Below the pieces are notes generated by a model that was given only the letters and a program-made list of their open reading frames with translations, was not told the origin of the DNA and made no database searches. A stretch of DNA of 64,000 bases from Podarcis pityusensis (taxonomy: Eukaryota): the NCBI GenBank assembly GCA_964106645.2, contig OZ067039.1; one strand, written 5' to 3'. Shown piece by piece: positions 4,055 through 59,100 of the stretch. The first letter of the stretch is position 1; each line of letters starts with the position of its first letter. The position numbers and the translations under genes were made by a program.

Positions 4055-6581
4055 GTAATCCAAGTTTATGCACCAACCACTGGTGCTGAAGAAACTGAAA
4101 TTGACCAATTCTATGAAGACTTACAAGACCTTTTAGAAGTGACACCAAAGAAGGATGTTCTTCTCATTATAGGGGATTGGAATGCTAAAGTAGGGAATCA
4201 AGAGATAAAAGGAACAACTGGCAAGTTTGGCCTTGGAGTTCAAAACGAAGCAGGGCAAAGGCTAATAAGAGTTCTGCCAAGAGAACAAGCTGGTAATCAC
4301 AAACACTCTTTTTCAACAACACAAGAGACGACTCTACACATGGACATCACCAGATGGGCAGCATCGAAATCAGATTAATTATATTTTCTGCAGCCAAAGA
4401 TGGAGAAGCTCTATACAGTCATCAAAAACAAGACCTGGAGCTGATTGTGGCTCAGATCATCAGCTTCTTATAGCAAAATTCAAGCTTAAACAGAAGAAAG
4501 TAGGAAAAACCACTGGGCCGGTAAGATACAATCTAAATCAAATCCCTTATGAATACACAGTGGAAGTGAGGAACAGGTTTAAGGATTTAGATTTGGTGGA
4601 CAGAGTGCTTGAAGAACTATGGATGGAGGCTCGTAACATTATACAGGAGGCAGCAACGAAAACCATTCCAAAGAAAAGGAAATGCAAGAAAGCAAAGTGG
4701 CTGTCCAATGAGGCCTTACAAATAGCGGGGGAGAGAAGGCAAGCAAAATGTGAGGGAGATAGTGAAAGATACAAGAAACTGAATGCAGATTTCAAAAAAA
4801 TAGCAAGGAGATACAAGAAGGCCTTCTTAAACGAGCAATGCAAAGAAATAGAGGGAAACAACAGAATGGGAAAAACCAGAGATCTGTTCAAGAAAATTGG
4901 AGATATGAAAGGAACATTTTGTACAAAGATTACCATAATAAAGGACAAAAGTGGTAAGGACCTAACAGAAGCAGAAGACATCAAGAAGAGCTGGCAAGAA
5001 TACACAGAGGAATTATACCAGAAAGATATGGATGGCTCGTACACCCCAGGTAGTGTGGTTGCTGACCTTGAGCCAGACATCCTGGAGAGTGAAGTCAAAT
5101 GGGCCTTAGAAAGCACTGCTAATAACAAGGCCAGTGGAAGTGATGATGTTCCAGCTGAACTATTTAAAATTTTAAAAGATGATGCTGTTAAGGTGCTACA
5201 CTCAACATGCCAGCAAGTTTGGAAAACTCAGCAGTGGCCAGAGGATTGGAGAAGATCAGTCTACATCCCAATTCCAAAGAAGGGCAGTGCCAAAGAATGC
5301 TCCAACTACCACACAATTGCACTCATTTCACATGCTAGTAAGGTTATGCTTAAAATTCTACAAGGCAGGCTTAAGCAGTATGTGGACTGAGAACTCCCAG
5401 AAGTGCAAGCTGGATTTCAAAGGGGCAGAGGAACCAGAGACCAAATTGCAAACATGTGCTGGATTATGGAGAAAGCTAGAGAGTTCCAGAAAGACATCTA
5501 CTTCTGCTTCATTGACTATGCAAAAGCCTTTGACTGTGTCGACCACAGCAAACTACGGCAAGTTTTTAAAGAAATGGGAGTGCCTGATCACCTCATCTGT
5601 CTCCTGAGAAATCTCTATGTGGGACAAGAAGCTACAGTTAGAACTGGATATGGAACAACTGATTGGTACAAAATTGGGAAAGGAGTACAACAAGGCTGTA
5701 TATTGTCTCTTTGCTTATTTAACTTATATGCAGAATTCATCATGCGAAAGGCTCGGCTGGATGAATCCCAAACCGGAATTAAGATTGCCAGAAGAAATAT
5801 CAACAACCTCAGATATGCAGATGACACAACCTTGATTGCAGAAAGTGAGGAGGAATTAAAGAACCTTTTAATGAGGGTAAAAGAGGAGAGCACAAAATAT
5901 GGTCTGAAGCTCAGCATCAAAAAAACGAAGATCATGGCCACTGGGCCCATCACCTCCTGGCAAATAGAAGGGGAAGAAATGGAGGCAGTGAGAGATTTTA
6001 CTTTCTTGGGCTCCATGTTCACTGCAGATGGTGACAGCAGTCACGAAATTAAAAGACGCCTGCTTCTTGGGAGAAAAGCAATGACAAACCTAGACAGCAT
6101 CTTAAAAAGCAGAAACATCACTTTGCCAACAAAGGTCCGTATAAAAGCTATGGTTTTCCCAGCAGTGATGAATGGAAGTGAGAGCTGGACCATAAAGAAG
6201 GCTGAACGACGAAGAATTGATGCTTTTGAATTATGGTGCTGGAGGAGACTCTTGAGAGTCCCATGGACTGCAAAAAGATCAAACCTATTCATTCTGAAGG
6301 AAATCAGCCCTGAGTGCTCACTGGAAGGACAGATCGTGAAGCTGAGGCTCCAATACTTTGGCCACCTCATGAGAAGAGAAGACTCCCTGGAAAAGATCCT
6401 GATGTTGGGAAAGATGGAAGGCACAAGGAGAAGGGGACGACAGAGGACAAGATGGTTGGACAGTGTTCTCGAAGCAACCAACATGAGTTTGACTAAACTG
6501 GGCGAGGCAGTGGAAGACAGGAGTGCCTGGCGTGCTCTGGTCCATGGGGTCACGAAGGGTCGAACACGACTAAATGACTAA
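4055..6581 (+). pseudogene. Disrupted BovB endonuclease-reverse transcriptase ORF
   Basis: Frameshift near 4268 and an in-frame TGA at 5388-5390 (probably CGA>TGA). The fragments correspond to ORF track entries 3677-4378, 4560-5390 and 5403-6581. Confidence 0.9.
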
Positions 6582-37540: not shown

Positions 37541-40525
37541 TCAGGCTGCGCCCTGACCAAAGGCCTGGTGGAACAGCTCTGTCTTGCAGGCCCTGCGGAA
37601 AGATGTCAAGTCCTGGAGGGCCCTTGTCTCTTGTGACAGAGCGTTCCACCAGGTTGGAGCCGCAGCCGAAAAAGCCCTGGCTCTAGTTGAGGCCAGCCTA
37701 ACCTCTCTGAGGCCTGGGACCTTCAAGATGTTTTTATTTGAAGACCGTAAGTTCCTCTGTGGGGCATACCAGGAGAGGCGGTCCCGTAGATACGAGGGTC
37801 CTAGGCCGTATAGGGCTTTGAAGGTTAAAACCAGCACCTTAAACCTGATCCTGTACTCCACCGGGAGCCAGTGCAGCTGGTATAGCACCGGATGAATGTG
37901 ATCCCGCAGCGAAGACCCCGTAAGGAGTCTCGCTGCGGCATTCTGCACCCGCTGGAGTTTCTGGGTCAGTCTCAGGGGCAGCCCCACGTAGAGCGAGTTA
38001 CAATAATCCAGTCTGGAGGTGACCGTCGCGTGGATCACAGTGGCTAGGTCAGGGCGAGAGAGGTAAGGAGCCAACTGCTTAGCTTGGCGGAGATGAAAAA
38101 ATGCCGCCTTTGTTATAGCTGCAATCTGCGCCTCCATGGAGAGGGAGGTATCGAAGATTACACCCAAACTCTTAACGGACGGTGCTGGCACTAATTGCAC
38201 CCCCGCAAGAGATGGGAGTTGCCCCCTCAATCCCATATCGTCCCGTCCCAGCCAGAGGACCTCTGTCTTCGAAGGATTTAACTTCAACCGGCTCCCACGT
38301 AACCATCCAGCCACAGCCTCCAAGCATCTGATCAGTGTGTCTGGGGCCGAGTCAGGATGGCCATCCATCAGCAGATAGAGTTGGGTGTCATCAGCATACT
38401 GATGGCAGCCCAGCCCAAAACTCCGGACAAGCTGGGCAAGGGGGCGCATAAAGATGTTAAAAAGCATCGGGGAGAGTATCGCACCCTGGGGCACTCCACA
38501 CACCAAGGAGTGGCGGGATGACAGTTCCCCCCCAAGCGCCACCCTCTGTCCCCGACCAGAGAGAAACGAGCGCAGCCATTGAAGGACTGTGCCCTGGATC
38601 CCCACGTCGGCAAGGCGGTGGTCCAGGAGTTCGTGATCGACCATGTCGAAGGCTGCTGACAGGTCTAGAAGAATCAGCAGCCCCGACCCGCCTCGATCCA
38701 GCTGCCTGCGGAGATCATCTGTTAGGGCGACCAGAGCCGTCTCGGTCCCATGACCAGCGCGGAAGCCGGACTGGAATGGATCCAGAGCCGATGTTTCATC
38801 CAGAAACCTACCAAGCTGTTCAGCAACCGCTCTCTCAATCACCTTACCCAGGAATGGAAGATTCGAAACTGGGCGGTAATTGGATAGATCTAAGGGATCT
38901 AATGATGTTTTCTTTAAGAGCGGACGCACCACTGCCTCCTTCAGTTCCCCTGGGAATGTCCCGGTGCCAAGGGACAGATTGATGATACCCCCCAGGGGGG
39001 CCCGCACCTCGTCTGGACACGCTCTAATCAGCCAAGACGGGCACGGGTCGAGAGGACAAGTGGTGGGCTTTCCAGCTCGGAGGAGTCTGTCCACATCGGC
39101 TGGGGATATCCGGTCAAAGTGGTCCAATACTGGACCCGAGGACAGTCGAGGGGCCTCCAGTTCCTTTATTGTATCCAAATTGGCAGGGAGGTCATGGCGG
39201 AGCGACAGGACCTTCTCCGCAAAAAAGCTCGCAAATGCCTCACAGCTGTGTGTCAAATTATTATTTAAATTTGGCTGTCCTTCGAGGGACGTTAAAGACC
39301 GAATTACACTAAATAATTGTGCCGGGCGAGAGCTAGCGGATGCAATGGAGGCCGAGAAGTAGGACTTCTTAGCGGCCTTCACTGCCATCTCGTAGGTTTT
39401 CATAAAAACTCTATAAGATGTTCTTGAGGCTCCGTCACGGGCACCCCGCCATACTCGCTCTAGCCGTCTGAGGTCCCGCTTCATTTTCCGGAGCTCCTCA
39501 GTAAACCAGGGAGCCCGGTTTCTGCGGGGTCGCAGAGGGCACTTAGGTGCGATCTCATTGATGGCTGCCAGGAGCTGGGTATTCCAGCCCTCAACAAGCT
39601 CAGTCAATGAGTCGCCAGGGGGAGAAAGGTCCCGCAAGGCTTGACGGAACCTATCAGGGTCCATCAGCCTCCGCGGGCGAGCCCAAATCGGCTCGCCACC
39701 TAAGCAGGGTGGGGGTGGAACATCAATCCTGGCTTTCAGAGCATAGTGATCAGACCATGGCACCTTGATCGAAGGAAACATGATCACATCTATACCGACA
39801 CCAAAGATCAAATCCAGCGTGTGGCCTGCTTGATGTGTGGGGCCCGAAACAAACTGGAAGAGCCCTAGTGTCGCCATGGAAGACACCAGGTCCAGAGCCT
39901 GTGAGGAGGGAGTGGCATCGGCATGGATGTTGAAGTCCCCCAATACCAATAGGTTAGGGAACTCCAAGGCCCAGCCGGCCACCGCCTCCAGCAGGCCTGA
40001 CAGGGTGGCTGCTGGTGCGCTAGGTGGCCGGTACACCAGCCAGACAGCCAAGCTCACCTCGGAGCCCCACACTAGGCCAACACATTCAATGCCGGGGATC
40101 AATGGCGGTGGTAGAGCCCTGAAAGAACAATCTTCCCGGATTAATAATGCCACCCCTCCCCCCCGGCCCACAGTCCGTGACTGGTGGAGGACGGAAAAAC
40201 CCGGGGGCGCCATCTCTCGTAAGGTAACAGTATCCCCTTCGCGCACCCAGGTCTCCGTCACACAAGCCAGGTCGACCCCCTGCGAGATGATGAAATCTCG
40301 CATGGTGGCGGTTTTGTTGCCTATAGACCTGGCATTGCACAACACCAGTGACGGAGGTGAGTAATCCTTGCTCACCCTACCCTCGTCTCTCGGGATGGGG
40401 CGCAGATTGGAAGGGGTACGAGCATATCCGTATCTCGATCCCCTTCGCCTATGACATCTGCCCCCACCGCCATACCTCCCTCGCCCCTCCACAGTAGGAA
40501 TCCCAAGCCTCATACTCGCCTCCAT
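37541..40525 (-). CDS. L2 APE-endonuclease / reverse transcriptase protein (994 aa, intact)
   Basis: Endonuclease motifs LCNARSI, CVTETW, VYRPP, GDFNIH, GHTLDLIF and SDH. RT motifs NYRPVSNLPFLGK, QSGFRAGHGTETAL, LDLSAAFD, GVPQGAILSP and YADDTQLY. Confidence 0.96.
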   Translation of the reverse strand: MEASMRLGIPTVEGRGRYGGGGRCHRRRGSRYGYARTPSNLRPIPRDEGRVSKDYSPPSLVLCNARSIGNKTATMRDFIISQGVDLACVTETWVREGDTVTLREMAPPGFSVLHQSRTVGRGGGVALLIREDCSFRALPPPLIPGIECVGLVWGSEVSLAVWLVYRPPSAPAATLSGLLEAVAGWALEFPNLLVLGDFNIHADATPSSQALDLVSSMATLGLFQFVSGPTHQAGHTLDLIFGVGIDVIMFPSIKVPWSDHYALKARIDVPPPPCLGGEPIWARPRRLMDPDRFRQALRDLSPPGDSLTELVEGWNTQLLAAINEIAPKCPLRPRRNRAPWFTEELRKMKRDLRRLERVWRGARDGASRTSYRVFMKTYEMAVKAAKKSYFSASIASASSRPAQLFSVIRSLTSLEGQPNLNNNLTHSCEAFASFFAEKVLSLRHDLPANLDTIKELEAPRLSSGPVLDHFDRISPADVDRLLRAGKPTTCPLDPCPSWLIRACPDEVRAPLGGIINLSLGTGTFPGELKEAVVRPLLKKTSLDPLDLSNYRPVSNLPFLGKVIERAVAEQLGRFLDETSALDPFQSGFRAGHGTETALVALTDDLRRQLDRGGSGLLILLDLSAAFDMVDHELLDHRLADVGIQGTVLQWLRSFLSGRGQRVALGGELSSRHSLVCGVPQGAILSPMLFNIFMRPLAQLVRSFGLGCHQYADDTQLYLLMDGHPDSAPDTLIRCLEAVAGWLRGSRLKLNPSKTEVLWLGRDDMGLRGQLPSLAGVQLVPAPSVKSLGVIFDTSLSMEAQIAAITKAAFFHLRQAKQLAPYLSRPDLATVIHATVTSRLDYCNSLYVGLPLRLTQKLQRVQNAAARLLTGSSLRDHIHPVLYQLHWLPVEYRIRFKVLVLTFKALYGLGPSYLRDRLSWYAPQRNLRSSNKNILKVPGLREVRLASTRARAFSAAAPTWWNALSQETRALQDLTSFRRACKTELFHQAFGQGAA

Positions 40526-40783
40526 TTACAAAATACAAAAGCAAACAAACAAACAAACAAAAAACAATTACACCAAAACAAAACCAATCCCCACCCCACT
40601 CAACAACCATCCCACCCCAACCCAAAATAAAAGAAAACAAAATAAAAATACATGGATAAAAACCACCGTTTATGGTGGTACAACAAAGTAAAAAGTAAAA
40701 ACACTTTTAAAACACTTTAAAATATATAAAACGTTTAAACATTTGCTGCTGCAGCACCAGTGTCCTTAAAGTTGTGGCGGTGG

Positions 40784-42185
40784 TGAGTATGGGGCCCGCC
40801 CCCAGGCCCAAGGTGGAGAATGGGCTTGCAGGGGGAGCGGTCCTCCCCAAGACTCACCGGCAAAGCGGCAGCAGCAATGTCCCGAGGCCTCCTTGGAGCC
40901 TTATATGCTGAGGTGGAGTATGGGGCCCGCCCCCAGGCCCAAGGTGGAGAATGGGCTTGCAGGGGGAGCGGTCCTCCCCAAGACTCACCGGCAAAGCGGC
41001 AGCAGCAATGTCCCGAGGCCTCCTTGGAGCCTTATATGCTGAGGTGGAGTATGGGGCCCGCCCCCAGGCCCAAGGTGGAGAATGGGCTTGCAGGGCGAGT
41101 GGTCCTCCCCAAGACTCACCGGCAAAGCGGCAGCAGCAATGTCCCGAGGCCTCCTTGGAGCCTTATATGCTGAGGTGGAGTATGGGGCCTGCCCCCAGGC
41201 CCAAGATGGAGAATGGGCTTGCAGGGGGAGCGGTCCTCCCCAAGACTCACCGGCAAAGCGGCAGCAGCAATGTCCCGAGGCCTCCTTGGAGCTTTATATG
41301 CTGAGGTGGAGTATGGGGCCCGCCCCCAGGCCCAAGGTGGAGAATGGGCTTGCAGGGCGAGTGGTCCTCCCCAAGACTCACCGGCAAAGCGGCAGCAGCA
41401 GTGTCCCAAGGCCTCCTTGGAGCCTTATATGCTGAGGTGGAGTATGGGGCCCGCCCCCAGGCCCAAGATGGAGAATGGGCTTGCAGGGGGAGCGGTCCTC
41501 CCCAAGACTCACCGGCAAAGCGGCAGCAGCAATGTCCCGAGGCCTCCTTGGAGCCTTATATGCTGAGGTGGAGTATGGGGCCCGCCCCCAGGCCCAAGAT
41601 GGAGAATGGGCTTGCAGGGGGAGCGGTCCTCCCCAAGACTCACCGGCAAAGCGGCAGCAGCAATGTCCCAAGGCCTCCTTGGAGCCTTATATGCTGAGGT
41701 GGAGTATGGGGCCCGCCCCCAGGCCCAAGATGGAGAATGGGCTTGCAGGGGGAGCGGTCCTCCCCAAGACTCACCGGCAAAGCGGCAGCAGCAATGTCCC
41801 GAGGCCTCCTTGGAGCCTTATATGCTGAGGTGGAGTATGGGGCCCGCCCCCAGGCCCAAGGTGGAGAATGGGCTTGCAGGGCGAGTGGTCCTCCCCAAGA
41901 CTCACCGGCAAAGCGGCAGCAGCAATGTCCCGAGGCCTCCTTGGAGCCTTATATGCTGAGGTGGAGTATGGGGCCTGCCCCCAGGCCCAAGATGGAGAAT
42001 GGGCTTGCAGGGGGAGCGGTCCTCCCCAAGACTCACCGGCAAAGCGGCAGCAGCAATGTCCCGAGGCCTCCTTGGAGCTTTATATGCTGAGGTGGAGTAT
42101 GGGGCCCGCCCCCAGGCCCAAGGTGGAGAATGGGCTTGCAGGGCGAGTGGTCCTCCCCAAGACTCACCGGCAAAGCGGCAGCAGC
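40784..42185 (-). repeat. Tandem array of about 10.7 x 131-bp GC-rich monomers (L2 5' UTR)
   Basis: ATGGGCTTGCAG recurs at 40820, 40951, 41082 and so on to 42130, an exact 131-bp period. Units differ at only a few positions. Confidence 0.98.
40875..40934 (-). promoter_or_regulatory. Putative Pol II core promoter in each monomer (GC box, TATA box, start site); one representative unit shown
   Basis: Minus strand reads GGGGGCGGG-20 nt-TATAAGG...GACATTGCTGCTGCC. The first T of TATA (40905) is 30 nt upstream of 40875, which is the monomer position where the element terminates (42185 = 40875 + 10 x 131). Confidence 0.65.
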
Positions 42186-48791: not shown

Positions 48792-49033
48792 CAGTGGTAC
48801 CTCGGGTTACATACACTTCAGGTTACATACGCTTCAGGTTACAGACTCTGCTAACCCAAAAATATTACCTTGGGTTAAGAACTTTGTTTCAGGATGAGAA
48901 CAGAAATCGTGCTCTGGCGGCACGGCAGCAGCAGGAGGCCCCATTAGCTAAAGTGGTGCTTCAGGTTAAGAACAGTTTCAGGTTAAGAATGGACCTCCGG
49001 AATGAATTAAGTACTTAACCCAAGGTACCACTG
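48792..49033. mobile_element. Tc1/mariner (Tigger-like) MITE, second copy
   Basis: TA-CAGTGGTACCTCGGGTTA ... TAACCCAAGGTACCACTG-TA. Same family and orientation as 47461-47702. Confidence 0.9.
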
Positions 49034-49820
49034 TAATAGGTTAATATGTATTGGTAGTTAATACGTAGTAAAACATCTTATTTTGATTTCACACACTTTC
49101 CTGCAGATTTCAATTACCATTCTCACATTACTCATCAATACAGGGAAATACTCTTCTTGTATGTAATCTGTCTATATTATTGGACAACAGGGTCCTTTGC
49201 AGCTGTTCACTGAATTCTTTGAATCAACTATATCTATTCTGACATGCTGGCGCGGTTACTGACGGCAGGTCCTGCTTTGATCCAGATCTGAACTACTGTC
49301 TGCTTGAAGGTCCTGGAGGCAAAGAGCAGTTTTTGGCTCTTCCAGGAATCTCTAGTAAGTAGCACAGTCTTTCCTTTAGACCCAAACTCAGGGGTAATGA
49401 GAGCATTTAAAGGAAAGCAGGGAGGCACAGGTTTGACATACCTTGCACAGGACTCTGCCTGAATATTAACAGAGGGCAGAGCTCTGATGTTGCCTCAGCA
49501 CCAGTCAAATTGAGGCTGAGCCCTGTATCAATCAATAGATTTTATTGCATTAGCCGTGTGGCCATAGCATGATATACATTGAAATAACAACATGAAATGG
49601 GGGTGGGGAGGTAAAGGTAGATATCTTCCTGGGCGAATACTTAAAGAAAGAGGGGGGGAAAGGGGGGGTTACTAAAGCGACAGGGGATTTAAAACATTGA
49701 GCGACAGATAATACAGAAACAAACAAACAAAAAAAAAACTGCTGAAGCTGGAGGAGGACCGTTAAAGGGTCCTTCAGCTCCTCAGATTTATCCTAACTCC
49801 ATTGTCCTTGTACAATAAGA

Positions 49821-52800
49821 CTACTTGGAACTTCGTTCGATTGTGCGGCGTATCGACTGCAGCTGTGGTGTTAAGGAAGAAGTTAGTGCCGCTTTTCTCT
49901 TCATCACACTAAGCAGGAAGTTAGCTGTCATCTCGGTAATCCAACAATCAGAATCCTGCAAAAGGAGGGACACTATCCAAGGCTGGATTGGGAGATGGAG
50001 CTTATTCACGAGGGGAGTTAAAAACCGAGATCTTTCATCTGTCCAGTTAGGACAGAAGAGCATTACATGTTCCATAGTCTCCAGGGCCGTGTCGTTACAG
50101 GTGCATGTTCTATTTGCGATGGGAACTCTGGAATAACGACCCGACAGAACTGCTGTAGGAAAACAGTTGAGACGGGCACAGGTAAAGGCCCTTCGCTTAG
50201 CCTCCGAAGAAATTGTGAAGCAGTATAGAGGAATCCCTTCAGGGGGTGGAATAGCTAGGGCTAGGCCTGAACACGGTCCTCTTGCACAAGAAGCTGTGTT
50301 AGAGAAGTCAAGTTGCTGTAGTTTCTTTTTAATTGGAGGTAGGGCCACCGGGCTGATACACTCTAAGTTAAGAACAGTTTTACAATTCAAATTGAGAAGA
50401 GAGCGGAATTTGAGGTTAATTGTAGTTTTCCAAGGGGAATTATGAATATCTCTTAGGATCAGATTGGAAAAACCACCTCTAATTCGAGCATCCGATGCTA
50501 ATAGGTGGAAGCTGTAGGAAATGGCTCGACTCCATGCTCGTTTAACAATTGAGGGCTGGGCGAACTCGAGTCGTAGGGCTGCACCTGAGACACATCTCGG
50601 GACGCCGGAAAGAGATCTCAGAAACATATGAAGTGGGCGGTCCAAGTTACCTGATATTGCTGTAGTCCATACTTCGCATCCATATAATAATTTAGGGACA
50701 ACTTTGGCATTAAATATTTGAATTGCTGCTGGAAGGTGTTTGCCGCCCTTCTGGTGGTAAAATCGGACAATGGCGTTAGAGGTCGTGGTTGCAGCGAGAA
50801 AGGCAGATTGTAGATGGGTGGTCCAGGAGAGATTATAAGTGAAAATTAAGCCTAGATATTTAAAGGCTTTTACCTTTTCTAAGTAGCCACCTGTGATCTT
50901 AAGCGGCTCCAACTTGAGTTTGCGGGAACGAGTGAAGTGGAGGACTTTCGATTTTTTATAATTAATATTAAGAGCTTCCGCCTTACAATAGGCGATAAAT
51001 GCATTAACTGCATTTGCTAGGTCCGCAGCTGTTCTGGATAAGATGACGGCATCATCAGCATAGAAAAGGGAAGCAACGGGGTGGCCTGCTAAGTGAGGAG
51101 GATACTTAGATGCTAGCTTCAAAGTGGAAATTGCATCATGAAGATAGAGATTAAACAGTAGAGGGGCCAAGAGACAACCTTGTCGGACACCCTTGGCCGT
51201 TGGAAATGGAGTAGTGAGGGAGCCGTTGGGACCACTTCGGACGCGAGCTGTGGTGTTTGAATAAAGGGAAATAATTAGGGAGAGGAGGTGCGGATCAATT
51301 CCCAGATGGGCAAGTTTGGACCATAATCTCTGCCTAGGAATGGAATCAAAGGCGGCCTCCAGGTCCATGAAAGCGGCAAATAGGTGGCCTTGCCTTGGTG
51401 CAGTGTATTTACTGGCCAGGTGATAGAGAGTTAGACAGTGGTCCATGGTTGATGCTGACTTTCGGAAACCAATCTGTTCTAGCGGTAGAATGTTCCTCTC
51501 CTGGACCCATGAGAGAAGTTCCTCCAGTAAAACAGCGGCAAATATTTTCCCCGGGATGGATAATAAACTGATGGGGCGATAGTTCCTAGGGATGTTTGGC
51601 TGGCCGCCTTTGAAGATCGGAACTATTATAGCTTCTCTCCAGGAGTCGGGGATGTCTAGGGCGGAGGAGATGGCGGTGAATACAGGAGTCAGGTGTTCGC
51701 TCCACCAAAGAGGATCAGACAGGAAAAGGTCCAACGGGACCATGTCTGGGCCGGGGGCCTTATTCCTTCGCATTGACATTATGATGTTGAAAATGCGAGT
51801 TGAAGTAAAGTTTATTGATGAAGTGGGACTAAGAGAGCAGGAACAGAGGTCCGACGGGGGTTGAAGGAGATCTGTAAGATGATTTGGAGAAGCGAAGCTG
51901 GTTGAATAGTAGGCAATCCATTCATCAGCGGAAATCTGGGTAGCTGGATTGAATGGTGCCGAAGGTCTAACTAAGCGCCAGAAGGAGCGGGAGTCATGCC
52001 TCTCTACAGCCGAACGAAGAGTGGACCAAGCCTCAAGGATGTGCTGCTGTTTCTTGCAATGAATCATGTTTCTGTATGTCCTTTTAATATCTATGAGCTT
52101 TGCACGGGTTTGGGGGTCGTTGGAAAATTTGATGATTCTGACCATTTTCCTAATTCGCCTTCTTAGGGCTTTACATTCCTTGTCAAACCAAGGCGATTCA
52201 GAGAAGAGGCGTTGGTGAGTAGGCGAGGCGGTGGTTATGTAAGTTGTTGAGAAAGCATCAAGTAGTTTCCCGTATTGATCAGCGGGCAGGATTGGGTCAG
52301 AGGGAACTGCAGACATATCAAATGATTTTTGTATGTCCAGGGCAAGAGAGGAGCTGAGGCTTGTCCATTTCTTTGTTTTGTATACAGGGTGGCTTTGTAC
52401 CGTGGTTCTATAGTTTGAGGGGACTGAAATTGGCTCTATTAGGTTTAACAATAGAGTCAGTGGAAGGTGGTCACCACCAAAATATTCAGCCACTTCCATT
52501 TTTGTAGAAATTGAGAATAGCTCCGGCGTCAGTAAAATGTAGTCGACAACACTGGTTCCCCGGGAAGTGATGCACGTTAATTGCTGCGAGGACAAGGGAG
52601 TAATGTTACCATTCGCGATGCAGAGATCGTTTTCCATGGCCAATTGGGCCATCAGCCTCCCCGACGCATTTGTTATAGGATCAAGAGAGCATCTGTTTCC
52701 CCAGGGGGGCTGCAGGGGATTGTCCAGGAGTGCTGCGGGAGATACTATATCATCGTCGTTGGGACCTATTCTTGCATTAAAGTCGCCTAAGAGGATTTGA

Positions 52801-53249
52801 GGAAGTCCTGGGTTAGTTGTTTGAAGATCATGAAGCCAAGACGAAAGTTCAGACCACCTTTCATTGCGGTCGAAATCATTAATTGCTGGGGGCAGATATA
52901 CTGTAGTTATCAACCATGGGCTTTTGGTCTTTGGGAGATGGATCTTTATAGTGAGAAAGTAAGGGGAAGATTTAATTTCCTCGCAAACAGTGAGGGATAA
53001 GCTGGTTGAAATAAGACAGGCGAGGCCAACTTGGGGGCGACCCCTGTTGGTTAGTTTACGAGCACAGGAGCTAAAGGAGCAATAGTTTGGGAGAGCGATA
53101 CTTTGTTGGGACCAGGTCTCTTGGAGGCACACAATGTCGAAAGAAGAGATGAAATTCATTGCTTCAGGATCCATTTGCTTTGTCGCCCAGCCGTTAACAT
53201 TCCAGGAGACAATTTTAAGGCTCTGGGATGGGTTGGGTGCATCTTTCAA
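49821..53249 (-). CDS. ORF2: APE endonuclease, reverse transcriptase and C-terminal CCHC finger
   Basis: Motifs IVSWNVNG, VCLQETW, GDFNARIG, SVVDYI, GDHLP, PWFDKEC, NYRPISLL, QIGFR, KGVRQGCLLAP, FYADD and CTCNDTALETMEHVMLFC. The listed start codon is TTG, and the frame stays open upstream to the ORF1 stop. Confidence 0.95.
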   Translation of the reverse strand: MKDAPNPSQSLKIVSWNVNGWATKQMDPEAMNFISSFDIVCLQETWSQQSIALPNYCSFSSCARKLTNRGRPQVGLACLISTSLSLTVCEEIKSSPYFLTIKIHLPKTKSPWLITTVYLPPAINDFDRNERWSELSSWLHDLQTTNPGLPQILLGDFNARIGPNDDDIVSPAALLDNPLQPPWGNRCSLDPITNASGRLMAQLAMENDLCIANGNITPLSSQQLTCITSRGTSVVDYILLTPELFSISTKMEVAEYFGGDHLPLTLLLNLIEPISVPSNYRTTVQSHPVYKTKKWTSLSSSLALDIQKSFDMSAVPSDPILPADQYGKLLDAFSTTYITTASPTHQRLFSESPWFDKECKALRRRIRKMVRIIKFSNDPQTRAKLIDIKRTYRNMIHCKKQQHILEAWSTLRSAVERHDSRSFWRLVRPSAPFNPATQISADEWIAYYSTSFASPNHLTDLLQPPSDLCSCSLSPTSSINFTSTRIFNIIMSMRRNKAPGPDMVPLDLFLSDPLWWSEHLTPVFTAISSALDIPDSWREAIIVPIFKGGQPNIPRNYRPISLLSIPGKIFAAVLLEELLSWVQERNILPLEQIGFRKSASTMDHCLTLYHLASKYTAPRQGHLFAAFMDLEAAFDSIPRQRLWSKLAHLGIDPHLLSLIISLYSNTTARVRSGPNGSLTTPFPTAKGVRQGCLLAPLLFNLYLHDAISTLKLASKYPPHLAGHPVASLFYADDAVILSRTAADLANAVNAFIAYCKAEALNINYKKSKVLHFTRSRKLKLEPLKITGGYLEKVKAFKYLGLIFTYNLSWTTHLQSAFLAATTTSNAIVRFYHQKGGKHLPAAIQIFNAKVVPKLLYGCEVWTTAISGNLDRPLHMFLRSLSGVPRCVSGAALRLEFAQPSIVKRAWSRAISYSFHLLASDARIRGGFSNLILRDIHNSPWKTTINLKFRSLLNLNCKTVLNLECISPVALPPIKKKLQQLDFSNTASCARGPCSGLALAIPPPEGIPLYCFTISSEAKRRAFTCARLNCFPTAVLSGRYSRVPIANRTCTCNDTALETMEHVMLFCPNWTDERSRFLTPLVNKLHLPIQPWIVSLLLQDSDCWITEMTANFLLSVMKRKAALTSSLTPQLQSIRRTIERSSK

Positions 53250-53366
53250 GGAAAGAACTGCTTTTGCTTGATTTGTGAGTGAGGGTTGAGTCTGTTCATA
53301 TCTAATGATGTCAGATTTCCGCGGAGATAGGGAGCCGGCTGGTGTTTGTCTCTGGTCTAATCTTTG

Positions 53367-55415
53367 TCAATTATTTCCCAAGGTGCTTTTAGGGATTACT
53401 CTTTTATGAGCCGGCCCATTGCTCTCCATACATGGCAGACTAGCCAAGTGTTCTATAGTTTCGGCTGTTAACTGTTTAATACTGACATTAGTGGTCACCG
53501 GGCCTTTGAAGTGTGTTATCTCTTTCCGTAGGTATTTTTCCGGTACCTGATTGTGGCCTAACTCTGCCTCATCCAGGTACCTCAGCTTGTCCCAAGAGCC
53601 TGGTGAGTTCACCTTAGGGATGGTTCTCCTTATTGGAGGTGGTGTAGTGTTCTCTTCAGTGTGCTGGGCTTCCTTAATTGGGGGTAGGTTAATCTCAGCC
53701 ATTGTCTGAAGGTAACATGGCCGACAGGCCGCTGGGTTTTGTTCTTGTATAGGGTTCAAATTAAAGGAAGTCTGGTCCTTTTTATGGGCATCCACATTGA
53801 TCTCCCCATTTATATCTCTCCCAGCCAGCTTAACTCTTAGCATATCCAATCTTTCTAATATTTCAGTCCGTATTGGGGATGGAAAATGGCAAAATTGCCT
53901 AATTAAGGTATTTTCCTCCACGGAGAAAAGATCCTCATCTTCATTCTCTTGAAGTTGCAGGTCTTGCAGGTGGGCATCTTTCCTTTTTAGTTTTTGAAGC
54001 TCTTGTTTCTGGAGACCAGGTCGGGTTTTGGGAGGTTGTTTCTCCTTACTAGGGTTTGCGTGCTTAGCTTCCAGAAGGGGATTCAGTGGTGCCTTGTTTT
54101 CAAAAAATCTGAGAATTTTTATCTGGGCCTTTAGGAATATATATCTTGATCTGTAGATAAACTTGGCCAGGTTCTGGTCTCTAAATGTGATCATTGCTCT
54201 CACTGAACAACCATCATGATGCAAATAATCTACAGAAATAATGTCATATGGCTTTACTGCTCCTGGCAATATATCATTCAGAATGTTCAAAGAGCTCATT
54301 CTTCGATCTTTCCCTGTAAGGAAGCCCTTTGATTTTGGGAAGTTTGTAAATACCAATTTTTGGGGATTTAAAATCAGGTTCCAACATCTTGCCTGAGTAA
54401 AGGTTTGCCCATCTTGTATAGTGTTGTCATCGCGATTGGGCGTTGCATCGTCCCCCTTTCCCGATTTGCTAAGCGGTTTGCTGCCTTCATTATTAGGGAC
54501 CACTTCTCCCCCAGAATCTGGCTCACTGAGTGAACTGTTACCAGAGCTCTGGGATGTTGCTTCCATCCTCCCATTTAGTTCTAAACTCTGGTTCAGAGAT
54601 GCCACCTTAGCCATTAGCTTTGGCGTTGCCTTCTTTTTCCCCTTCCTGCCTTTCTCTTTTTTATCTCGTGCAGCAGATTTATTTGAGTCCAATGGGAGTA
54701 GATTAAATAATTTCTGCCATTGTTTATGTCGGCTTATCTTTATTTTCCTTGTTGTTTTAATGTTCTTAGTTTTCTTTTCCCGGGCTTTTGGTCTATTTTT
54801 TTGCAGTTTCTTGGTTGTTACTGCTTGTCTCATCTTCACTGGTTCATCTGGGTTATGCACAAGTTCATCTGGTTTATGTACTTGGGGTGCATCAGTTGCT
54901 GTTGTCTCTTTTGGTTGGGGAATAAAATTTTCCACAAGGGACAGCAATAACCCATTTGTTATTGTCAAGTAATTTTTTATGTTGGAGAGGTCTGTATTTA
55001 TATCTTGGAAGTGGGCCTGAAAATGGCCATCACTCAGTTCAGTTTGAGTATATTTGGAAGTGGGCGCCTGGTCTTGGTGGCATGTTGTTAATTCTGCTGG
55101 GGGCCGCTGATTATAGGCGACAGAAATATTTTCCTCAAGTTTCTCAGCTAGAGCTAGCTCTTGCGCCAGGCTTCTTGGGGGATTTATGTTTCCAGAGTTT
55201 TGTTGAAGCTCTTTGAAGTAATGTGACCGGTCAAGATAGGTAAGGGGGAGAGGAGTGACTTCATCAATAATTGGTTCAATTTGTTCACTCATGCATTCCT
55301 CCCTCTTGGGGAAGTAATTTATAATTTTACTTTGTCTCTTTCCAGGTCCCGGGGGGCTAAGTGGCGTATCTGGCAAAATACCCAACTCCTTACATATCTT
55401 TCTGGTGAGGACCAT
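53367..55415 (-). CDS. ORF1: putative RNA-binding/chaperone protein (682 aa from MVLTRK)
   Basis: Long intact ORF upstream of ORF2, with the first ATG at 55415. It has a coiled-coil-like segment (DINTDLSNIKNYL), Lys-rich tracts and an RRM-like segment (LVFTNFP...RAMITF). Domain calls are inferred. Confidence 0.85.
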   Translation of the reverse strand: MVLTRKICKELGILPDTPLSPPGPGKRQSKIINYFPKREECMSEQIEPIIDEVTPLPLTYLDRSHYFKELQQNSGNINPPRSLAQELALAEKLEENISVAYNQRPPAELTTCHQDQAPTSKYTQTELSDGHFQAHFQDINTDLSNIKNYLTITNGLLLSLVENFIPQPKETTATDAPQVHKPDELVHNPDEPVKMRQAVTTKKLQKNRPKAREKKTKNIKTTRKIKISRHKQWQKLFNLLPLDSNKSAARDKKEKGRKGKKKATPKLMAKVASLNQSLELNGRMEATSQSSGNSSLSEPDSGGEVVPNNEGSKPLSKSGKGDDATPNRDDNTIQDGQTFTQARCWNLILNPQKLVFTNFPKSKGFLTGKDRRMSSLNILNDILPGAVKPYDIISVDYLHHDGCSVRAMITFRDQNLAKFIYRSRYIFLKAQIKILRFFENKAPLNPLLEAKHANPSKEKQPPKTRPGLQKQELQKLKRKDAHLQDLQLQENEDEDLFSVEENTLIRQFCHFPSPIRTEILERLDMLRVKLAGRDINGEINVDAHKKDQTSFNLNPIQEQNPAACRPCYLQTMAEINLPPIKEAQHTEENTTPPPIRRTIPKVNSPGSWDKLRYLDEAELGHNQVPEKYLRKEITHFKGPVTTNVSIKQLTAETIEHLASLPCMESNGPAHKRVIPKSTLGNN

Positions 55416-55980
55416 GTTGGGTAGTTGTCTTCCTATTAGAAAGCCAGTTGTCCCCCAGTGTTTCTGCCTAATTAGCAGGGCCAATGGATGAATAGAGGTG
55501 TATCTGCAGCTTTCTCCTGCTTAGCTCATCAGCGAGCACTGATTCTCATATGTTTCTTTGGTGGAGCTGGAAGAGGGAGGAAGGGAGGAAGGTTTGAGAG
55601 CTCTTCCGTCAGCTCCCAGTGTCCTTTTACTGATAAAAGCTGATAGAAGCTGGGGGTTAATTGATATAAGGTGAAGGATGGTAATTATTTTCCAAGCCGA
55701 GCCTCTTTATCAGCCTGATTTGCTGAAGACGGTCTTACTCACTCAGATGGAACTCAGACGGGACTCGAAGAGGACTTGCTTCAACCCTTTTTTCGGTGTT
55801 TCCGATCACCCACCTTGAGTTTTTCCCTTTCCAGTGACGGGGGTCCCTTCACGGCAGGGGAGTCAGGCCAGACCTCTTCCCTTCCCCACTCACTCGTTTC
55901 AGAAGATTACTCAGCTCCACAGCAGTAAATGCACAGCGGGGGTGCGGCAAGGCAGCAAGGCTGAAGCTCGAAGCAGGTGA

Positions 55981-56121
55981 TAAAACAATAAAGCAATAAA
56001 AGCCCAGAGGGGTTAAAAAAAAAACTACTTAGAACTACTTAAAACTTAGTCTAAAACAATAAAACAATAAAAGCCCAGTGGGGGTTAAAATAACTACTTA
56101 AAACTACTTAAGACTTAATCT
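55981..56121. repeat. About 70-bp tandem duplication in the RTEX-like 5' UTR
   Basis: TAAAACAATAAAGCAATAAAAGCCCAGAGGGGTTAAAA...ACTTAGTC is repeated, with substitutions, starting at about 56052. Confidence 0.85.
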
Positions 56122-56155
56122 AAAAGCAGACGAAGTTAACTAGGCTGCTGCCTTC

Positions 56156-56166
56156 GCCGCCATCTT
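56156..56166 (-). promoter_or_regulatory. YY1-like motif of an internal promoter
   Basis: AAGATGGCGGC begins at +14 of the TSD-defined 5' end. Confidence 0.65.
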
Positions 56167-59100
56167 GTGTGCGTTTCATCCCTGTATATAGGAGGATGAG
56201 CTGCATTCTAACAGAAAGCTGTGCCTTCATTGAAAGGTGCTTCTTCATATAATGGGGTCATATCCACTCCAGCAGTCTTTTACTCCAACAGAGCCATGGA
56301 GGAAACTACGGCCACACTGGGACTTCTGTGCTAGTCCTCCAAGTGTGACGGTGGCAGAGAGGCCCGAGAGGCACCGGCACCACAGATTTGTTTTGTGGAA
56401 GTGATTCTGGAGCTGACCCAGCTTGTCACTCCCCTTCTGATTCAGAGTCCTCAGCTTCATCCTCTGCAGAAAAGGGATCTGACACCAGGTTCATGATAGA
56501 AGATGCATGCTATCAAAATGGTTCTGTAAAATATATTTATTTTTACTCTCTGTTAGGATTGGGCTGGTAAGCTCACTCACTCATAGCGCTAAAGGCAGAT
56601 GGAAGGCATCCCTTGCAGGCAAGGCACTGAAATACCCACAACTTACATTTCTTTCCCTTGTGTTTTGGTTCTGTTCTTGTCATCCGCCATACCTAACCAG
56701 CAATGTAGCATAATGTTCAGATTCAAAAAAATATCAGAGCTGGCTGACTCCACCCACTCCCCCTCGCCGCCACCACCACCCCTCAATCTCAGGTTTAAAA
56801 TTGGCACTCTCCATCAGAAGCTTTCTAATACCAAGCTACCATGAGAGATTTCCAGTGCTGAGAGGTATTGCTTTCTGTGGCCATCATAACTAAAATCCAA
56901 AAGCAATGAGCACCCTGTGTGGATCTGTAATTGCTACCTTATGTGGTCCCTGAGGTCCTAGTTTCAGCAAAGCAGCCATGTGTGCTACAGTCCATTTGCA
57001 AGCTCTTGGAATTGGATTATAGACTCATAAATTTGCCGCATGTTGTGTACACTCTCACTGAAACCCCAGAAGACCAGTTGAGTGTAAAGGCATTCCAGAT
57101 GGGAATTTAAACGCTAAATTTCATGTCATATTATTTAACAGGTTAGTTTTTATCCCTCATTTACTTGCCATCTGTCATTACTTCAGTTTCCCAGCAAGAC
57201 TGCCTGGGTCATGCACAAGCTTTTGAAAGCAGAAGAAAATTAATACTAATATCATCCTTGCTCATAAAATGCTGTATTTAAAAATAAAATTTGAAATTAT
57301 ACAGATGTCGTAACTACTGAACATTTTAATCAGGATATCATTTGCTTTAATGCTGGGAAGCCTTAAATTATAGTTTCTGGTAACATGTTCTCATATATTG
57401 TATTTAAAATCTAAGGACAAGTTATCGGTCAGGTTCGCACTTTGGTTGTATCCTGTAGCATCTTTTTACTAGTGGAGCCTTCTGTTAGAAGAGGGAGGGG
57501 AACATTATTATTATTATTAGATGATGATAATGATGATGATGATGATGATTTGCCAATTCCCTGTGAACCTGTGAAGACTTTGCACACACCCAAACCCAAA
57601 TTCACTTTAGGGGGTTGGGATTTCTCCTGGAATATTGTGGGAGCTGATGCAGGAGAAGAGGAACAGCAAAAATTACCTCTTTACTATTCTGCTCACAGAA
57701 CCCTCCACAGGATTAATATTACTGATTATTGCTTAATGATAAAGATAATCCCATTCCACCCACAAATGAGAATAAAATCCTTTTGCACATGATAAAATAC
57801 ATATTTTGTGGGAAGAAAATAGGGATCTGGGAGCGTAATGCAGGTTGACAGAGTGGCACTGCAATTTTTATTTATTGTCATCCTAGTCATTTAAAAAAAA
57901 AACACAACACCTCTGTGGAAGGTCCATTATGCCCCAAATGCATTACATATTAATAAAAAGTGCATTGCCTTTCAGTATCTTTGAGACCGGGTATCATTTT
58001 TTTGCCATAATGTTTACATCTGTTAATTTATGTGAGAGCCCGATTTAAAATTCAAATCACAAAAATTCTGAAGAAATTCATAATATTGAAACTAATACTG
58101 AATGTGAAGTGTTAAATCCTGCTTTCCATTATACCAAGGGATAGACAGACCTATTAAAACCCAGTATTTACAGGGGCAGCCATTGCACAATTCCCCTGAG
58201 AGCATTGGAATGACATCAAGTTCTTTCATTCCTGGGGCCACTTGCTTTTGTTGCTCTGTGCTGGCAAGGAGTTCCATGCACTAACCACTCCAGGTGCCCT
58301 ATTCTGAAAAGTTTAAAGGAATAAAACATATTTAGAGGTATGGAGGCAGTGCATAACCTTCATACTTCCTGACAGAGGAATTGGCTTAACTGTGAAATCT
58401 GAAGTGGACCAGTGATCTAATTTGCTTGGATCAAATCAGGTGAGCTTGGAATTTAGGAATCTGAGTTTGGCAGATTCTTCCCTTATTCCTAATTGTACCG
58501 AAGATGAGGAATAAAATATAGCATGTTTATATGAGAACTGCAAGCTTTAATCAGTAGATTAATCAATTAATTTTTAAAGGCCAATTTTAATCAGTGAAAG
58601 CAATTTGTAATTGGGGAACTGAGAGTGCTACTGTTATACAGAATGGAAAGAATGTTACAGATGATATATCCTTATTCTAACAATGAGAGATAGCTTGTAT
58701 TTGTTAATTTGCACATTGTTTCATGCAACCTTCAATAAATATCACAAATGCTACCTATACAGAGAATTTGATAGCATGCGTTTTAATTAAATGTACACAT
58801 TAGTTTTAAAGGTGCATCATTAACTATGATACATAGGTATCAGTGAACAGTCTTAATCTACATGAATTAGTAGGTTTCTGCACAGGGAGCCTACAGATGG
58901 GTTTGGGTTCTTATGGTTTCTAGATTTAATGATTTGGGGCTCCACCACCACCACCTCTTCATTGGATGAAGAGATTACATTTCCCTCTATTTATGACATT
59001 TGAAATCTGTGCATAACCACACATTTAATACAGCATTTAATATAGCGTGGATAAATGCACTGGAATAACCAACAGTTGTGAATTCACAACATTGTTTCCT

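Follow-up and report, generated by a model that had tools for sequence, protein, structure and literature searches.

A single in-frame UGA-C stop between ORF1 and ORF2 of a Podarcis LINE suggests low-level stop-codon readthrough

How a long interspersed element (LINE) produces the protein of its second open reading frame (ORF), ORF2p, from a two-gene RNA has been described as an open question (PMC3894237), and the models discussed in reviews include stop-restart coupling, reinitiation, an internal ribosome entry site and 2A skipping (PMC3894237, PMC5972666). In human L1 a 63-nt spacer precedes the ORF2 AUG, reinitiation is the presumed mechanism (PMC4091050, PMC5972666), and it is believed that roughly one ORF2p is required for each RNA (PMC4091050). 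For LINE Group 3 of Paramecium, a ciliate clade of its own, sequence had already led to a proposal of readthrough (PMC5405496). Outside the LINEs, tobacco mosaic virus (TMV), alphaviruses and gammaretroviruses keep the polymerase behind a leaky in-frame stop (PMC13517186), and in Candida Tca2 and Verticillium VdLTRE5, which are long terminal repeat (LTR) elements of the Copia type, a single UGA without CARYYA lies between the structural and pol ORFs (PMC3956500, PMC3441728). A comparable junction was found in a vertebrate LINE of the RTE group, located in a 64,000-nucleotide stretch, here called the window, of contig OZ067039.1 of the lizard Podarcis pityusensis (GenBank assembly GCA_964106645.2). 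Its ORF1 and ORF2 share one frame and are separated by one TGA, and the reverse transcriptase (RT) may well be made by readthrough of this stop. No report of measured LINE readthrough or of this lizard junction was found in the literature covered; most subscription journals, Repbase entries and supplements lay outside its scope, so an earlier note is possible.

The stop codon of ORF1 (TGA, 53369-53367, minus strand) is followed by CAA AGA, and ORF2 continues in the ORF1 frame as a single open frame of 1181 codons that ends at TAG 49823-49821. A preliminary description of this DNA had reported this layout together with 39 open codons behind the TGA and the lack of an in-frame ATG ahead of SWNVNG, the endonuclease motif I, and all of this was confirmed: the 39 codons are present exactly as quoted, 14 further open codons (LKDAPNPSQSLKIV) reach the motif, and the first in-frame ATG, at 53174 (residue 65), falls after it. 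A further in-frame ATG of ORF2 is at 53159, those at 53299, 53242 and 53200 are all out of frame, and four near-cognate codons stand in frame within the stretch (ATC 53309, ATT 53306, TTG 53249 and ATT 53213). The 39 open codons are expected by chance in 16% of shuffles and at 6% of the element's own off-frame positions, and all 53 in 8% and 2%, respectively; these chances being only modestly low, the layout is unusual yet not decisive from one copy. The features of the element are as follows.

49529-56179, minus strand: APE-type non-LTR retrotransposon, full length, 6,651 bp, with an 8-bp direct repeat at its ends and both ORFs intact
56180-56187, minus strand: target-site duplication ATACAGGG, 5' copy
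49521-49528, minus strand: target-site duplication ATACAGGG, 3' copy
55416-56179, minus strand: 5' untranslated region (UTR), 764 nt, with four short upstream ORFs
55981-56125, minus strand: two-copy repeat in the 5' UTR, unit about 70 bp
56167-56158, minus strand: CAAGATGGCG near the 5' end of the element, which we take to be YY1-like
53367-55415, minus strand: ORF1, 682 aa, starting at ATG 55415
55311-55334, minus strand: motif QSKIINYF, ORF1 residues 28-35, presumably PIP-box-like
53367-53369, minus strand: single in-frame TGA, context AAT TGA CAA AGA
53208-53366, minus strand: open stretch without Met, 53 codons, from the stop to endonuclease motif I; residues 1-47 of low confidence in the model
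52503-53210, minus strand: APE-type endonuclease domain, ORF2 residues 53-288 (PF03372, E 3e-9; structure model)
50844-51590, minus strand: RT domain, ORF2 residues 593-841 (PF00078, E 2e-34)
50052-50111, minus strand: C-terminal Cys/His cluster C1088, H1100, C1105, invariant in 18 of 18 aligned sequences
49529-49820, minus strand: 3' UTR, with AATAAA at 49546-49541 and then a short ATTG repeat at the end

The order of APE endonuclease and RT in ORF2, the target-site duplication and the simple 3' tail place the element among the APE-type non-LTR retrotransposons, and no long terminal repeats were found within 49000-57000. Its nearest solved RT is that of human L1 (E 3e-25).

Other copies were compared over 53060-53620 in four of 21 runs (X2, X7, X11 and X16; coded organisms A, D, G and G), by means of 40 of 54 differences, complete for X2 record 17, X7 record 20, X11 record 4 and X16 record 6 and partial for X7 record 19 and the small X16 records. 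TGA CAA AGA was unchanged in the main contig of each of the four runs, and no indel or joint occurred across the region among the differences listed. The unchanged stop shows, as far as these contigs tell, that the TGA belongs to the family, which is not a demonstration of deep constraint. In run X7, two variants of the ORF1 tail (15 and 6 differences, 53384-53502), both starting at 53354, overlap a single contig that spans the linker and the endonuclease, reflecting either mosaic subfamilies with a junction near the stop or a simplification of the assembly.

The end of ORF1 is shared more widely. Six of the 20 sequences that have a conserved W motif, the window's included, end on Asn 73-77 residues past it, and P0004 and P0005, at about 30% identity, are among them. 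The single in-frame stop is kept in copies and relatives, a trait expected of programmed readthrough. Two findings that would have spoken against the preliminary description, a sense codon at this position in other copies and shifted frames in relatives, did not appear: the frame is the same in the close copies and in two distant relatives, L001 and L026.

These came from a distant set of 131 loci, in which motif I was visible in 41 and an in-frame upstream stop in 36 of the 41; the background is imperfect, many comparison loci being cut or devoid of ORF1. An in-frame ORF of 150 or more codons ending at the upstream stop was present in three of the 36 (L001, L026 and L063). In both L001 (1201-1212) and L026 (1339-1350) an ORF1-like frame is followed by one TGA CTA and by ORF2 in frame, with 31 and 19 Met-less codons, respectively, between the TGA and motif I. 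A coiled coil is predicted in their ORF1-like frames, which also show an RRM-type pattern (Pfam matches below the cut-off); their ORF2 sequences are 36% identical to each other, and L001 is the top-ranked ORF2 match to the window element, at 25% identity. Both carry exactly the hexamer UGACUA, known from type II readthrough and of high basal readthrough (PMC13517186), and TGA-C was found in only three of the 33 other distant loci with a visible stop. These UGA-CUA junctions are the strongest support for readthrough in the wider group, and as candidates for it L001 and L026 are stronger than the window element. In the third locus, L063, on a long tree branch, an in-frame 383-codon ORF and one TGA are followed by a 253-codon lead with a Met ahead of the endonuclease.

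From this evidence low-level readthrough of UGA-C is, on balance, the explanation to be preferred, with moderate confidence. Translation would start at ATG 55415 and proceed through ORF1, and most ribosomes would terminate at the UGA; a small fraction would decode the leaky UGA-C as an amino acid and pass along the floppy linker to the endonuclease and RT. As ORF1 accounts for 682 aa and ORF2 is in frame, the fusion would have 1,864 aa, whether or not it is cleaved afterwards, and a high ratio of ORF1p to RT would result. Since no stimulatory motif or structure was found, readthrough would probably occur at close to the basal rate of a UGA-C stop; that could be enough if each RNA requires only about one ORF2p. 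In the models, low confidence marks both the ORF1 tail and the linker, and a fusion is structurally plausible for that reason.

Several observations weigh against this reading. Known readthrough contexts are UAG CAR YYA (type I, as in TMV), UGA CUA or UGA CGG (type II) and UAG G with a downstream pseudoknot (type III, as in gammaretroviruses; PMC13517186), and UGA-CAA-AGA matches none of them: AGA follows CAA, neither CUA nor CGG follows the stop, and the stop is UGA with no stable fold behind it. The likeness to TMV drawn in the preliminary description on account of the CAA is accordingly weak. No stable RNA structure was predicted downstream of the stop (z +1.1 and +0.7, pseudoknots being outside the model), nor was one found in L001 or L026, so that the downstream RNA, which the same description had proposed to fold, offered no stimulatory structure. 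A 9-bp helix spanning the stop was rejected because X11 alters just one of its sides (53335).

Another check named there, for purifying selection in the linker, detected none: of the 11 changes, a small number, four are synonymous (30% expected without constraint, p 0.43), with no stop and no indel, and the synonymous share does not differ significantly from that of the flanks (Fisher p 0.29). In the 14 codons before the motif and the early endonuclease, six of eight changes are synonymous (p 0.006), and in the ORF1 tail 11 of 21 (p 0.018); among the changes counted are four that every run shares, which probably are peculiar to the window's copy. A linker with no detectable amino-acid constraint counts against readthrough, and would also fit a spacer or disordered hinge; the constraint on the codons directly before the motif and on the early endonuclease was counted for translation from before Met 65. 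Moreover, the compared copies are at least 90% alike, so the unchanged 9-mer is not significant alone, and 14 of the 20 sequences with the W motif end elsewhere, 46-291 residues past it. No naturally fused ORF1-ORF2 was found among 36 ORF1 relatives, none of which exceeds 751 aa, or among the 25 clade ORF2 matches in the 120 of 154 matches listed, the longest having 1187 aa though 2067 were allowed. L001 and L026 are a single sublineage, and their joint clade with the lizard group was neither rejected nor shown (approximately unbiased test, p 0.35). Finally, an internal Met lies 12 residues ahead of motif I in P0102, and the called protein of its sister P0008 begins just before the motif; part of the clade therefore probably has an ordinary AUG. 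The linker had no match in P0102, and a TNVS stretch at the P0102 N-terminus was rejected as an ORF1 tail for its chance-level score (E 6.4).

The alternative of most weight, less probable than readthrough by a clear distance and rather unlikely by itself, is L1-like termination followed by AUG-less reinitiation at a near-cognate codon of the linker, which would give a separate ORF2p and leave the shared frame and the UGA-C as incidental. Translation of human L1 ORF2 is AUG-independent and requires a translated upstream ORF (PMC4091050), so that a missing AUG alone is no departure from the L1 model, contrary to the preliminary description; the window element differs from L1 in the lack of an AUG ahead of the endonuclease and in having one stop and an open linker. 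A linker evolving like unconstrained sequence suits reinitiation, as do the nine of 36 distant loci with no Met ahead of motif I, seven of which lack an in-frame ORF1. Near-cognate codons do exist: ATC 53309 varies only to ATA, and ATT 53213 has A at -3 and G at +4, but a start at the latter would cut into the first strand of the ORF2 model (residues 49-56, behind residues 1-47 with predicted local distance difference test (pLDDT) values under 50), and TTG 53249, the best candidate, is TTA in run X7. Nor does reinitiation predict the single stop, the same frame, the fully open linker and UGA-C together, and it leaves the conserved TGA CTA of L001 and L026 unexplained. A TURBS-like UGGGA (termination upstream ribosome-binding site) 7 nt before the stop was rejected, since the TLANN tail of P0081, which matches here, cannot encode it at that position.

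The remaining explanations have little probability. In a minor spliced RNA, ORF1 or the 5' UTR could be joined in frame to ORF2 with the stop skipped, and a pyrimidine run does precede a candidate AG at 53244-53243; this is very unlikely, as no joint and no loose end was seen at the site in any of the four runs, whose contigs would drop rare forms, and the X16 contig spans the stop unspliced (53319-53620), X16 being only guessed to be RNA. Slightly less likely still is a start at ATG 53174 or 53159, where public Podarcis gene models begin (P0006, P0021, P0023, P0024 and P0028). Given the position of the first strand, a protein begun at Met 65 would lose motif I and its endonuclease would be dead or altered, yet motif I is kept across the clade wherever visible, the window copy has a target-site duplication, and ATG 53159 is ATA in X11. 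That the TGA is a nonsense mutation of the window's copy in one long ORF is hardly credible: arthropod gene models P0018 and P0020 join an ORF1-like region to the endonuclease, though these may splice over the stop, and the unchanged TGA in all four main contigs, the ORF1 end conserved in distant subfamilies and the size limit of the ORF1 relatives indicate a family-wide stop, not a private lesion. P0128 (1646 aa) was rejected as a fusion, its repetitive N-terminus being, by eye, unlike ORF1. The readthrough proposed in the preliminary description gains from the kept stop, the unshifted frames and the UGA-CUA relatives; the TMV likeness is weak, and neither selection on the linker nor a stimulatory RNA structure was detected.

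The closest named homologues of the element are from Podarcis, and further named relatives from Anolis, Rhineura and Hemicordylus. In quick trees whose references did not include L1, I or Nimb, the element groups with about 20 relatives in what appears to be a clade inside the RTE supergroup, separate from RTE/BovB and split from the CR1/L2-like rows with 100% support in the SH-like approximate likelihood-ratio test (SH-aLRT). This position is compatible with RTEX, which sides with RTE against CR1/L2-like elements, lies outside RTE/BovB and has a full ORF1 (PMC3905857, PMC11203168, PMC5753468), so that this label is plausible from the clade position, in trees that hold no RTEX reference, and from the full-size ORF1 with its RRM-like domain. 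Some RTEX members have an esterase in ORF1, and none was found in the window ORF1 by Pfam search or in its structure model. Among ORF2 proteins of at least 980 aa (shorter proteins and 14 named gene models set aside), motif I is inside the called protein for four of the 16 from the clade and for 37 of the 55 from elsewhere (Fisher p 0.004). The difference hints that an upstream start codon is often missing in the clade, but it is soft evidence: the gene callers seem to give GTG or TTG as M and sometimes pass over the first start, and sequences of both groups seeded the profile.

The ORF1 model has a mean pLDDT of 58, with an RRM-like domain at residues 347-440 (pLDDT 85-98), a long helix at 131-163, read as a coiled coil from the model, a helical pair at 499-533 and a low-confidence tail at 540-682. 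ORF1 had no Pfam match. The RRM-like domain gave weak fold matches to RRMs, human L1 ORF1p among them (E about 0.008), and none at E<=0.001; an Atlas search with it returned leads all under 0.8. The RRM match, the two ORFs and the nearest solved RT liken the element to human L1, whose ORF2 can be made without AUG (PMC4091050). A search with the ORF2 N-terminus in viral contigs and with the ORF1 alignment in metagenomes found no relatives and so yielded no junction DNA for the squamate subfamilies of 30-55% identity.

The pattern Q-x-x-[ILM]-x-x-[FY]-[FY] of the QSKIINYF motif is present near the N-terminus in 14 of the 17 ORF1 sequences with an intact N-terminus, the window's counted. In P0084 a PIP-box-like motif lies near the ORF1 C-terminus instead, and P0052 has a variant of it there. 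PCNA binding by ORF1p would be unusual, the L1 PIP box being in ORF2p. More tentatively, and as a possibility to be doubted at present, UGA-C readthrough might be shared by a broad RTEX-like branch of the RTE group, from L001 and L026 to the squamate families, with RT made, in vertebrate LINEs of recent activity, as an ORF1-ORF2 fusion in a Gag-Pol-like strategy and carried into the particle on an ORF1 bearing the PIP box.

Because one leaky stop lies in an intact vertebrate family, a short reporter would allow readthrough to be tested directly. If it is true, RT is an ORF1 fusion and the picture of particle assembly changes, and Podarcis gene models begun at the internal Met omit endonuclease motif I.

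Two other LINEs in the window belong to different families and match the element only in the RT, at 27-28%. One, CR1/L2-like, has an intact 994-codon endonuclease-RT frame (37541-40525, minus strand), and upstream of it a GC-rich tandem repeat, seen in translation, covers about 40700-42000; the other, a BovB-like RTE element (4269-6581, plus strand), is interrupted by stops and frame changes. In the distant set, LINE-like RT also occurred in 51 genome records (L081-L131), bacterial ones among them, probably as eukaryotic DNA in bins.

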